Below, piece by piece: positions 884-4,793 of a stretch of 8,399 bases of DNA. The stretch lies in contig JAWCFL010000003.1 of assembly GCA_038858525.1 (NCBI GenBank), positions 77,591 through 85,989 of the forward strand. The letters run 5' to 3'. The stretch's first letter is position 1. Each line of letters starts with the position of its first letter. Under the pieces are notes generated by a model. The model worked only from the letters and a program-made list of their open reading frames with translations, was not told the DNA's origin and searched no databases. Source of the stretch: Candidatus Jordarchaeales archaeon. Its GTDB lineage: Archaea > Asgardarchaeota > Jordiarchaeia > Jordiarchaeales > Freyrarchaeaceae. The translations under genes and the position numbers were made by a program.

Positions 884-900
884 CGAAAAAAATAAATAAA
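884..900 (+). promoter_or_regulatory. Putative BRE/TATA element of the tRNA-Tyr gene
   Basis: CGAAAAAAATAAATAAA lies 26-42 bp upstream of the mature tRNA 5' end (926), the spacing expected for an archaeal promoter with a short leader. Confidence 0.5.
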
Positions 901-945
901 GAGAAGGAGAATAAACCAACTGAGTCCCCCCGTAGCTCAGTTGGT

Positions 946-974
946 TTGGGGCTAAAAACAGAGCCCCACAATAC
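946..974 (+). other. tRNA intron 1, non-canonical position 20/21 (D loop), 29 nt
   Basis: BHB: central helix GUUG(940-943)/CAAU(969-972), bulges GU|U (944-946) and AC|A (973-975), intron stem UGGGGCU/AGCCCCA. The outer helix is the D stem, offset by unpaired A14. Cutting after the 2nd bulge base restores U20-A21 exactly. Confidence 0.9.
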
Positions 975-991
975 AGAGCGGTCGGCTGTAG

Positions 992-1037
992 AAGCGCGCT
1001 TGATAGCGTGGCAGGATCAGCCGCCGCTTGTACAGAC
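992..1037 (+). other. tRNA intron 2, canonical position 37/38, 46 nt
   Basis: BHB: outer helix GUCGG/CCGAC, central helix CUGU(986-989)/ACAG(1032-1035), bulges AG|A (990-992) and AC|A (1036-1038). The inner helix is imperfect next to the bulge (A993-U1031, then AAGCG/CGCUU in a shifted register). Confidence 0.93.
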
Positions 1038-1043
1038 ACCGAC

Positions 1044-1071
1044 ATGTTCCCGGGTCAACCGGATACGGGCA
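1044..1071 (+). other. tRNA intron 3, non-canonical position 43/44, 28 nt
   Basis: Relaxed BHB: central helix ACCG(1038-1041)/CGGG(1066-1069) with 3 WC pairs and a terminal A.G mismatch, bulges AC|A (1042-1044) and CA|U (1070-1072), 5-bp inner helix UGUUC(1045-1049)/GGAUA(1061-1065). The outer helix is weak and depends on context. Confidence 0.65.
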
Positions 1072-1072
1072 T

Positions 1073-1101
1073 TTTTAGGTTTAGGTCAACACCAAGCCTA
1101 C
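1073..1101 (+). other. tRNA intron 4, non-canonical position 44/45, 29 nt
   Basis: hBHBh': outer helix AC(1065-1066)/GU(1103-1104), central helix GGGC(1067-1070)/GCCU(1096-1099), bulges AU|U (1071-1073) and AC|G (1100-1102), inner helix UU(1074-1075)/AA(1094-1095). The 5' strand of the central helix lies inside intron 3. Confidence 0.68.
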
Positions 1102-1116
1102 GGTCCCCGGTTCGAG

Positions 1117-1136
1117 ATTGCTACTTTCAGCGAAAA
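1117..1136 (+). other. tRNA intron 5, non-canonical position 59/60 (T loop), 20 nt
   Basis: Complete hBHBh': outer helix is the T stem, central helix UUCG(1111-1114)/CGAA(1131-1134), bulges AG|A (1115-1117) and AA|U (1135-1137), inner helix UUG(1118-1120)/CAG(1128-1130). Confidence 0.92.
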
Positions 1137-1156: not shown

Positions 1157-1172
1157 TACTTTTTATGTGTTT
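1157..1172 (+). terminator. Possible oligo(T) terminator of the tRNA transcript
   Basis: T5 run at 1160-1164 in a T-rich tract starting about 10 nt after the discriminator base. Confidence 0.4.
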
Positions 1173-1265
1173 AACTTATGGGAGTCTTGTCGCTTAGCTC
1201 TATTGGCTGCTTGATCGATATTTTTAAAATGGGGACTAGCTTTTCCTTGGTTTCAGGTGTGTTCT

Positions 1266-2390
1266 ATGATGCCTTTGCAACTTCTTGGTGAACAAAATCC
1301 GACGCTTTTTCTCGCGATCACTGTGATGTACGCGTTGTTCTTTTTGGTTTTTGCTTTAGGTGGGACGAGAATCCAAGTTAGGGTTTGGCTTTTGCAGATT
1401 GGAGATTTCGTGCGGCAAATTGAGGAGTGGAGTGAGGAGGGAAGGAGGGTGGCAATTATGGCTGTTAGGGAGTTTGGAGTGGGGGATAGGGATGTTGCCA
1501 GGTTTGTTGAGGGTTTGCTTGACTTTGTTTTCATAGAGCCTGTTGAGAGGGATCCGTTGGGAGTTTTGAAGAGGTTGGATCACCTTTTGGATGTTAGGAT
1601 GAGGCGGTTTAGGGGATTAATAGAGGAGGTTGCTTCTCGAGCTGACAAGGAGAGCGTTGCTAACCTTGAGATGGTTTTAGAGGCTGCTTCTGCTTTGCGT
1701 CAGTTGTTTTTCATTTTAAGGCATTACTATCTCATGAGTAAGGAGAGCGGAAATATTGCTTTGGTTTCTCAGATACAAGTTATGCTTCCGTTTATAACTA
1801 AGATTGCTTCTGCTTATCGGGAAGCCTTAAACGCCTTTTATTATGGTAAGCCTATAGGTGATGGAGCTGGTGCTTTGGTTGCGTCTCTTTTAGCTCGGGA
1901 GCTTGGAGAGGGAGACTTTAGGGATTTCAACGGCGAACTTGTAAGGGCGGATGCACGGTATAAGGGGAGGGAAATTGTTATTTTGAGGGCTAAGGGGCCT
2001 GGAGGACGTGTTGGGAAGCCCGGTGACGGTGTTCTTCAAGTCCTCAAGGAGAAAAAAGGGAAGGTTAAGAGGGTGATCATGATTGATGCAGGGTTAAAGT
2101 TTGAAGGAGAGGAAACGGGGAAAGTTGTGGAGGGAGTTGGAGCAGCTATTGGTGGGCCGGGAGTCGATAAGTATAAGATCGAGGTAGGGGTCGTGGAGAG
2201 AGATGTGGCTGTTGATGCTGTGGTAATTAAAATGTCGCTCGAGGAGGCATTGACTCCAATGAAGAGGGAAATCGTGAAGGGAGTTAAGGAGGCAAAGGAG
2301 AAAATTAAAGGAATCATTGAGAGGTTTACGGATGAGGAGGATGCTGTCATCGTAGTTGGAGTTGGGAACTGTATTGGCATAGGGAACTAG
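1266..2390 (+). CDS. DUF1512-like protein: N-terminal membrane anchor, helical region, C-terminal alpha/beta peptidase-like domain
   Basis: 375-codon ORF with hydrophobic N-terminal segment; motifs FVFIEPVERDPLGVLKRLDHLL, PIGDGAGALVA, RAKGPGGRVGKPG, IMIDAGLKFEGE, VGAAIGGPG recalled from the archaeal DUF1512 family, which I recall next to map. ATG at 1266 preferred over GTG at 1257 because GGTG precedes it. Confidence 0.8.
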   Translation: MMPLQLLGEQNPTLFLAITVMYALFFLVFALGGTRIQVRVWLLQIGDFVRQIEEWSEEGRRVAIMAVREFGVGDRDVARFVEGLLDFVFIEPVERDPLGVLKRLDHLLDVRMRRFRGLIEEVASRADKESVANLEMVLEAASALRQLFFILRHYYLMSKESGNIALVSQIQVMLPFITKIASAYREALNAFYYGKPIGDGAGALVASLLARELGEGDFRDFNGELVRADARYKGREIVILRAKGPGGRVGKPGDGVLQVLKEKKGKVKRVIMIDAGLKFEGEETGKVVEGVGAAIGGPGVDKYKIEVGVVERDVAVDAVVIKMSLEEALTPMKREIVKGVKEAKEKIKGIIERFTDEEDAVIVVGVGNCIGIGN

Positions 2391-4217: not shown

Positions 4218-4793
4218 TCATGGTTTAAACCATGAGAAAATGTAGTACTTGGGTTCTCCTGTGTGTTCGACCGTAGCTATCACAAATTTTTTTCTTACTG
4301 ATGTTGCAAGGCGGCCAGCTCTAACTATGTCTATAGGGCTCAGCTGAGTTCCTAGTGGAACGACGCTGACTATTAGGGGGGCATGGTCTATTCCGGGTCC
4401 ATGCTCATAGACCGAGAAGTCTGCGCCAAACTTTAACCCTGGCCTAACAACGTAGCCCTTTTCCCTTAAATCTTTGTAAACAATGTACTTTGTTTTGAAG
4501 TCTAGGTATGCCTTTTCTGCCCTTTCCTCAAGCTCTTTTTTTGTCACCAAGTGTCCATCGTTCATATCGTATATTTCAATGCGGCCCTTTTCAAGTAAGT
4601 ATAATGCCTCGATGAGTGAGAGTTCCAACGGTTTGTTGAACTGCGGGGTTTTCGGCTTCCGTATTCCTAGAGGCTGCCCGTAGAAGCCTTCACCGTAAAG
4701 TCTGGAGCCTTCTTCGGGATCCCACACTATTACCCTGTTGCCCTCTATGAGCTCAGCTGTCTTTTTTAGTGGAACATTACTATCGGTAGTCAT
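4218..4793 (-). CDS. endA: tRNA splicing endonuclease, catalytic subunit (crenarchaeal alpha-type)
   Basis: 191 aa; LELSLIEALYL, VYKDLREKGYVVRPGLKFGADFSVY, catalytic triad Y129/H137/K168 (VYEHGPGIDHAP ... VRKK), C-terminal FSW. AGGAGGT RBS at 4801-4807. Confidence 0.97.
   Translation of the reverse strand: MTTDSNVPLKKTAELIEGNRVIVWDPEEGSRLYGEGFYGQPLGIRKPKTPQFNKPLELSLIEALYLLEKGRIEIYDMNDGHLVTKKELEERAEKAYLDFKTKYIVYKDLREKGYVVRPGLKFGADFSVYEHGPGIDHAPLIVSVVPLGTQLSPIDIVRAGRLATSVRKKFVIATVEHTGEPKYYIFSWFKP

Follow-up and report, generated by a model that had tools for sequence, protein, structure and literature searches.

In the tRNA-Tyr(GUA) gene of a hot-spring Asgard archaeon (Jordarchaeia), five introns interrupt the tRNA sequence, and one region raises a question about the smallest possible exon of a tRNA gene. 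Between C43 (1043) and G45 (1102) there are 58 nt, of which 57 have to be removed to give a tRNA. Is this insert a single intron of 57 nt, or is it composed of two introns which flank a single remaining base? We analysed this locus in a window of 8,399 nt (the whole stretch of DNA under study; positions 77591-85989 of contig C3), which belongs to a 2.09-Mb assembly with a completeness of 92.7%. Our reading is that U1072 is a one-nucleotide exon which becomes position 44 of the tRNA, that the splicing motifs of the two neighbouring introns are mutually exclusive, and that the downstream intron (intron 4) would be removed before the upstream intron (intron 3). From the sequence comparisons described below, we estimate the probability of this joint proposal at about two in three.

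The tRNA-Tyr gene and its introns

The gene occupies 926-1150 on the forward strand and comprises 225 nt, of which 73 nt are exonic. Reading of the sequence gave acceptor strands CCCCCCG and CGGGGGG, a C1-G72 pair, the discriminator base A73 and the anticodon GTA, and the CCA terminus is not encoded. When the five predicted introns were removed, a sequence of 73 nt was obtained, and after addition of CCA this was recognized by ARAGORN as tRNA-Tyr(gta) with a normal cloverleaf. C1-G72, A73 and the anticodon GUA constitute the identity set of archaeal and eukaryal TyrRS. The spliced tRNA possesses all these elements together with a class I variable loop of 5 nt, as is characteristic of archaeal tRNA-Tyr.

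When the raw window was submitted to ARAGORN and Rfam, no tRNA was called at 926-1150, as is expected for a gene with five introns. In the entire genome of 2.09 Mb, ARAGORN with intron search found 11 tRNAs. Thus, the great majority of tRNA genes in this genome escape the standard finder. One of the 11 calls is a dubious tRNA-Tyr(ata) with a 320-nt intron on contig C11. A BLAST search of the 2.09-Mb assembly with the mature sequence did not find a second tRNA-Tyr gene, the only match being 926-1150 itself.

By reading of the sequence, an A/T-rich TATA-like box was found at 886-902 (forward strand), approximately 25-40 nt upstream of the 5′ end of the tRNA. The AAAAAATAAATAA element of this box is also present upstream of tRNA-Tyr in two species of the same genus (G002 and G001), and the box is a putative promoter. 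In the same way, an oligo-T run was found at 1160-1164 (forward strand), 10 nt past the discriminator. T runs are also present 3′ of tRNA-Tyr in the orthologs, and the run is a likely terminator. The downstream gene at 1257-2390 (forward strand) encodes a DUF1512 protein and is syntenic with tRNA-Tyr in the closest relatives (84-100% identity). More distant DUF1512 relatives with 65-72% identity (L255-L261) have a gene for an FMN-dependent dehydrogenase upstream, and no tRNA-Tyr is found there.

To locate the introns, we used the following BHB rule. For an intron from s to e, the central helix is formed by s-6 to s-3 paired with e-5 to e-2, and the cut in each 3-nt bulge follows the second base. 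Applied to the whole gene, this rule gave strict motifs at 946-974, 992-1037, 1073-1101 and 1117-1136. The rule was checked on introns 946-974, 992-1037 and 1117-1136 and restored the exact loops of intron-free orthologs in these cases. Intron 1 (946-974, forward strand, 29 nt) lies in the D-loop after position 20, with a GTTG/CAAT central helix of 4/4 pairs and an inner helix of 7 bp. Intron 2 (992-1037, forward strand, 46 nt) is at the canonical 37/38 position. Its central helix is CTGT/ACAG (4/4 pairs), and its outer helix is the 5-bp anticodon stem. All orthologs and the outgroup from a sister genus (G004) share this intron. Intron 5 (1117-1136, forward strand, 20 nt) interrupts the T-loop between positions 59 and 60 with a strict BHB (TTCG/CGAA, 4/4 pairs), which has an outer helix of 5 bp, the T-stem, and an inner helix of 3 bp. 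G002 and G001 possess introns 2, 3 and 4. Introns 1 and 5, both with strict BHBs, are missing from these two and from the other three congeneric orthologs (L250, L252 and L253), and look like recent gains in the species of the window.

Two further BHB candidates were rejected because their removal would delete exon bases: 1044-1106 (ACCG/CGGT), and 992-1070 (CTGT/ACGG), in which exon bases 38-43 would be among those lost. The latter reflects a possible off-pathway pairing of CTGT at 986-989 (tRNA positions 32-35) with ACGG at 1065-1068 of intron 3. This motif combines a complete central helix (4/4) with 2 bp of outer helix, and could form in G001 and G002 as well.

Anatomy and conservation of the 58-nt insert

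The insert is preceded by exon 3 (1038-1043, forward strand; ACCGAC, tRNA positions 38-43 by sequence reading) and followed by exon 5 (1102-1116, forward strand; positions 45-59), which consists of GGTC, the 5′ strand of the T-stem and the first six bases of the T-loop. The original prediction on this locus stated that no single-intron register works in this region. We confirmed this: every register that removes the insert as one intron and yields a valid tRNA reaches 1/4 central pairs at most, both in the window and in two congeners.

In contrast, a strict BHB is present within the insert. Intron 4 (1073-1101, forward strand, 29 nt; between positions 44 and 45) has a central helix formed by GGGC at 1067-1070 and GCCT at 1096-1099, with 4/4 pairs including one G·U. 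The bulges are ATT (1071-1073) and ACG (1100-1102), the outer helix is 1065-1066/1103-1104 (2 bp) and the inner helix is 1074-1075/1094-1095 (2 bp). Across six orthologs, the central helix of intron 4 is complete (4/4) and the outer helix has 2-3 bp, as in an ordinary BHB intron. Furthermore, the outer helix can be extended in all six orthologs by pairing of CCGG (1059-1062) with the 5′ strand of the T-stem (1107-1110). The upstream arm of this BHB consists entirely of intron 3 sequence and contains no exon sequence. Thus, the earlier claim that the GGGC/GCCU helix of intron 4 uses intron 3 bases 1067-1070 was correct.

Intron 3 (1044-1071, forward strand, 28 nt; between positions 43 and 44) has a relaxed BHB. 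Its central helix is formed by ACCG at 1038-1041, bases of exon 3 which thus serve two purposes, and CGGG at 1066-1069. The bulges are ACA (1042-1044) and CAT (1070-1072), and the inner helix starts from 1045/1065. The original prediction had placed this helix at the right location and had assumed full pairing of ACCG with CGGG. Full pairing was not found: there are 3/4 pairs, A1038 faces G1069, and the outer helix is almost absent. The same holds for all six orthologs, with three pairs and the A·G opposition in the central helix, 0-1 bp in the outer helix and 0-5 bp in the inner helix. The 5′ site is an asymmetric internal loop and not a 3-nt bulge in four to five of these orthologs (inner helix 0-1 bp). 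The intron 3 motif fits only the relaxed BHB class, a class so loose that numerous boundaries carry it by chance (preprint 10.64898/2026.10.13.758758).

A single base, T1072 (forward strand), is left between the predicted cut in the 3′ bulge of intron 3 and that in the 5′ bulge of intron 4; this base is the proposed one-nucleotide exon U44. Removal of both introns restores a canonical tRNA, and the resulting variable loop, UGGUC, is identical to the loop of an ortholog that does not have the insert. All coordinates in the original prediction were correct. Because 1067-1069 is part of the central helices of both introns, the two BHBs exclude each other, as had been proposed. In addition, 1039-1041 takes part both in the intron 3 helix and in the anticodon stem, the latter serving as outer helix for intron 2.

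For the comparison, six orthologs were used: the tRNA-Tyr gene of the window (G000), those of G001 and G002, and three distinct metagenome orthologs (L250/L251, L252 and L253/L254), which were fetched via the syntenic DUF1512 gene downstream. T1072 is invariant in all six, and A1044 is likewise invariant. In contrast, all four bases occur immediately before GGTC (C, A, G, T, T and A). This variability fits the second base of a bulge and would be odd for a tRNA position, because the exons are otherwise nearly identical. The blocks CGGG(C/T)ATT and GCCTA are invariant in all six sequences, and intron 4 varies in length from 21 to 37 nt with an interior that cannot be aligned. In intron 3, the hairpin CCGG...CCGG and the sequence ACGGG(C/T)AT are conserved. 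When the proposed structure of intron 4 was imposed on the alignment, 98.5% of the cells were paired, as compared with 23-65% when the partner strand was slid by 1-3 columns. One-sided changes that retain the pairing of intron 4 were observed, namely C-G/U·G in three of the six orthologs and A-U/G·U in one. Compensatory covariation was not found in the motifs of introns 3 and 4 among the six orthologs, where the central pairs are invariant or changed on one side. A covariation test on these sequences gave no double changes, and the shuffles equalled the observed values. Elsewhere, a compensatory double change affects pair 27:43 (981/1043) at the top of the anticodon stem, which is G-C in the window but C-G in the outgroup and all five congeners; the tRNA otherwise hardly varies.

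The sister genus (G004) offers a view of the gene without the insert. Its tRNA-Tyr reads CCGAG-TGGTC-CCCGG, and base 44 is U. Thus, the insert-free loop has U44, as the two-intron model predicts. A metagenome copy of the same type (L095) also lacks the insert and has the same sequence, CCGAG-TGGTC-CCCGG. This copy was the only addition among the matches listed when metagenome and genome collections were searched with a 16-base anticodon-arm pattern, which was too generic. When tRNA-Tyr from a Freyarchaeia genus was sought by BLAST as a second outgroup, the matches were other tRNAs. The six orthologs, the invariant T1072 and the TGGTC loop of the sister genus are thus in agreement with the earlier claim that removal of 1044-1071 and 1073-1101 leaves U1072 as position 44.

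We then considered how readily such an arrangement arises by chance. When the 58-nt insert of the window was shuffled, an equal or better two-step score was obtained in 35 of 300 trials, and shuffling of the inserts of the orthologs gave 15-172 of 300 (5-57%). Many partitions are possible in such a search, and little is demanded of a motif in the relaxed class, a point on which the Asgard preprint also cautions (10.64898/2026.10.13.758758). When the first step had to be canonical and the second had to reach 3/4 central pairs or more, each real sequence had one or two solutions, and 1044-1071/1073-1101 was the only one common to all six orthologs. On this comparative evidence, we judge that the two-intron decomposition is beyond chance across the orthologs, although not from one sequence alone. 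Cloverleaf scoring by ARAGORN did not discriminate between the candidates for base 44, and all four products passed.

Intron 3 resembles a part of its own tRNA. Its order of elements, CCGG-loop-CCGG-CGGG, is similar to that of the variable loop, the T-arm and the start of the 3′ strand of the acceptor stem (1103-1146). In local alignments of intron 3 with 1103-1146 in the six orthologs, 2-10% of shuffles reached the observed score, which is a weak signal that intron 3 may have been born by partial duplication of the tRNA. The copied CCGG in intron 3 is the same sequence that extends the outer helix of intron 4. A search for paralogs of the introns elsewhere in the genome, as a sign of mobility, yielded nothing beyond chance, with matches of at most 15 nt.

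Splicing order and alternative explanations

The genome encodes the enzymes for BHB splicing, two EndA proteins and an RtcB-type ligase. The gene at 4218-4793 (reverse strand) encodes an EndA catalytic-type subunit of 191 aa (PF01974, 110.7 bits) and sits 3 kb from the five-intron tRNA-Tyr gene. Among solved structures, its best relatives are 3P1Z_B and 3AJV_B (E 1.6e-48), presumably catalytic chains from Aeropyrum pernix, followed by 5X89 and 2ZYZ_B, presumably from M. kandleri and Pyrobaculum, respectively. The second EndA paralog is encoded on contig C43 (L249, 1189-1785; PF01974, 80.6 bits) and is nearer to PDB 1A79, presumably the M. jannaschii enzyme, and to 5X89, presumably the M. kandleri enzyme. 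RtcB was detected with 601 bits (PF01139).

Prior excision of intron 3 reduces the central helix of intron 4 from 4/4 to 1/4 pairs in all six orthologs. Thus, under the BHB rule, removal of intron 4 and then intron 3 is the sole productive order, and the dead end that had been predicted for the reverse order holds under this rule. The cuts, their order and the identity of mature base 44 can be predicted from the sequences as follows. EndA would first recognize the strict BHB of intron 4, whose upstream arm is borrowed from intron 3, and would cut at 1072/1073 and 1101/1102. RtcB would then join U1072 to G1102. In the resulting intermediate, which still contains intron 3, the 3′ end of this intron, CGG(G) at 1066-1069, would displace C29-G31 from C39-G41 of the anticodon stem. 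This displacement would form the relaxed BHB with the bulges ACA and CAU; cuts at 1043/1044 and 1071/1072 and a second ligation would then give the UGGUC loop. Because 1067-1069 is shared, the two cuts that flank U1072 could not occur in one binding event. U1072 would therefore always be attached to a larger exon and would never be freed as a nucleotide. In the reverse order, CCGA would be placed opposite GCCU, and intron 4 would have no usable motif.

Energies were calculated with ViennaRNA. In G002, the MFE structure of the precursor contains the intron 4 BHB; in G001, this BHB is 2.6 kcal/mol less stable than the MFE. In the window, it lies 9.8 kcal/mol above the MFE at 37 °C and 5.2 kcal/mol at 70 °C. 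A 10-bp hairpin at 1076-1100, which is present in intron 4 of this species only, sequesters the GCCT strand of the intron's own BHB. The splicing-competent fold is consequently costlier in the window, where the value at 37 °C is the 9.8 kcal/mol given above. The cost of forming the intron 3 motif before and after removal of intron 4 is 8.0/7.5, 1.9/2.6 and 4.0/3.2 kcal/mol. Its central helix has 3/4 pairs in both states, and only 1 bp is gained in the outer helix. The proposed refolding, by which removal of intron 4 would expose intron 3, was not borne out, because the cost of the motif is about equal before and after this step. Locally, the two motifs differ little in energy. As predictors of the order, the energy models gave no clear preference, and nothing that was computed blocks a wasteful first cut at intron 3.

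Several other explanations of the insert have to be weighed against the one-base exon. A single intron of 57 nt, removed by relaxed or unknown recognition as 1044-1100 (the base before GGTC then being position 44) or as 1045-1101 (leaving A1044), is one of these. ARAGORN accepts all such products as tRNA-Tyr, and the invariance of A1044 means that conservation alone allows A44. Moreover, G26·A44 is common in tRNAs, and other archaeal tRNA-Tyr genes that we fetched have A44. However, at most 1/4 central pairs are formed by such an intron in every ortholog tested, whereas a full BHB with both bulges is available at 1073-1101, where EndA is expected to cut. The occurrence of all four bases before GGTC beside near-identical exons also speaks against a single intron, which would moreover leave the invariance of GCCTA and CGGG(C/T)ATT unexplained. 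Together with U44 in the outgroup, these points make a single intron improbable. Another alternative is a two-step removal, in which intron 4 is likewise removed first and the second cut uses another register, so that U1072 is lost and the loop is GGUC, or 1045-1072 is removed and A44 remains; in either case there would be no one-base exon. Four-base variable loops do occur in tRNAs. The register that removes U has 3/4 central pairs (A38-U, C-G and C-G) in G002, L250 and L253, the orthologs with GGGT. The flanking helix was scored in one ortholog, G002, where this register has an outer helix of 3 bp as against 1 bp for the register that keeps U. In these three of the six orthologs, the U-removing second step thus scores as well as or better than the U-keeping step. 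The U-removing step does not work in G000, G001 and L252, in which A38 would lie opposite C, and the A44 register has 1/4 central pairs. Given also the invariance of T1072 and the outgroup loop, which has 5 nt and starts with U, we regard these registers as unlikely.

The anatomy proposed here may be right while the order is not obligatory. An EndA of broad specificity might cut intron 4 after intron 3 has gone, or might cut single sites independently. One EndA paralog is closest to 3P1Z_B/3AJV_B, presumably the A. pernix catalytic subunit, and (αβ)2 and ε2 enzymes are described as cleaving non-canonical motifs (PMC5829648). The lack of an energetic preference for either motif would also suit a free order. 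On the other side, the CCGA that comes to stand opposite GCCU after removal of intron 3 pairs with it at one of four positions in all six orthologs, and in the window GCCU has just one other helix partner, which is located within intron 4 and whose use would add 10 bases to the tRNA. In addition, that GGG(C/T) opposite GCCU never varies suggests use of the helix between them. A free order therefore seems unlikely to us. Finally, the locus might be a decaying tRNA pseudogene from which the insert is never spliced. ARAGORN and Rfam see no tRNA in it, and at 92.7% completeness of the assembly another tRNA-Tyr gene may be unassembled. Yet blindness of the finder is the rule in a genome with 11 ARAGORN tRNAs, and the mature sequence has no second match. 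Furthermore, the exons are nearly identical in six orthologs, the change at 27:43 is compensatory, and the A/T box and the T run are conserved. A pseudogene is very improbable. We therefore continue with the one-base exon between two ordered introns.

Implications and comparison with known systems

On the comparative evidence, it seems reasonably probable that U1072 is a true one-nucleotide exon in at least six lineages of Jordarchaeia and that intron 4 may be called an "intron-dependent intron". The overlap of the motifs would then act as an interlock that blocks joint cuts and fixes the order of intron 4 and then intron 3, and composites of this kind may explain a part of the Asgard insertions in the variable region and the D-arm that lack a BHB. 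If this is true, the lower limit of an exon in protein-catalysed splicing by EndA and RtcB would be one base. It would also provide a second kind of order dependence, in which a motif is destroyed by the wrong splice, as opposed to a motif that is created by an earlier splice. Moreover, intron 4 can only have become spliceable once intron 3 was in place, which would give a clue to how introns accumulate. The region is a compact and conserved substrate of approximately 80 nt with six natural variants, in which the choice of EndA between competing BHBs can be studied. For annotation, long insertions in Asgard tRNA genes without a terminal BHB may be composites. Iterative splitting guided by comparison can recover the true mature sequence, in this case base 44 of the only tRNA-Tyr found.

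Heavily interrupted tRNA genes have been reported from Asgard relatives (PMC11291895), with up to five introns per gene (preprint 10.64898/2026.10.13.758758). The present genome resembles those of related Jordarchaeia and Freyarchaeia, in which most tRNA genes are interrupted, many sites are non-canonical and many genes are missed by the standard annotator. In the same preprint, 21% of variable-region insertions have canonical BHB boundaries, and relaxed motifs or imprecise boundaries are suggested. The 58-nt insert would probably be counted there as a single sequence. Two introns around one base may offer a concrete alternative explanation for variable-region insertions without a BHB.

Single-nucleotide exons have been described in Arabidopsis (PMC4674806), in Fusarium CYP621A (PMC12940212) and in placozoan mitochondrial cox1 (PMC5436844). 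These exons belong to protein-coding genes, two nuclear and one mitochondrial (cox1), whereas the exon proposed here belongs to a tRNA gene. To our knowledge, the introns that flank those protein-coding exons are not removed by EndA at a BHB. In a literature search, whose reach did not extend to the primary papers on nested introns, no one-base exon was found for a tRNA or a BHB intron. The one-base exon and the borrowed BHB arm thus look new.

Order-dependent removal of closely spaced BHB introns has already been published (PMC8450103, PMC3728597, PMC3978253), and tRNAscan-SE 2.0 iterates its intron search because of such introns (PMC8450103). In nuclear pre-tRNAs of Cyanidioschyzon merolae, BHB introns are removed in a reproducible order, and the intermediates were detected by RT-PCR (Soma 2013, PMC3728597). 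There, the BHBs fold independently and the order follows their stability; in contrast, the motifs in the present gene overlap, and one order destroys the other motif. A close parallel is with the close or nested introns of crenarchaeal tRNA genes, in which shared BHB bases lead to sequential splicing (Sugahara 2007/2008; Tocchini-Valentini 2009, PNAS 106:20246; as summarized in PMC3728597, PMC3978253 and PMC8450103). Both systems have several EndA-type introns in one gene and motifs that share bases. As far as these summaries describe the published type, the BHB of the last intron forms only once the other introns have gone. In the tRNA-Tyr gene, the dependence is inverted: intron 4, which would be removed first, needs its neighbour to be present, and the motif of intron 3 can form at any time. 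Furthermore, the exon between introns 3 and 4 would be 1 nt, in contrast to the nested introns of crenarchaea as these summaries describe them.
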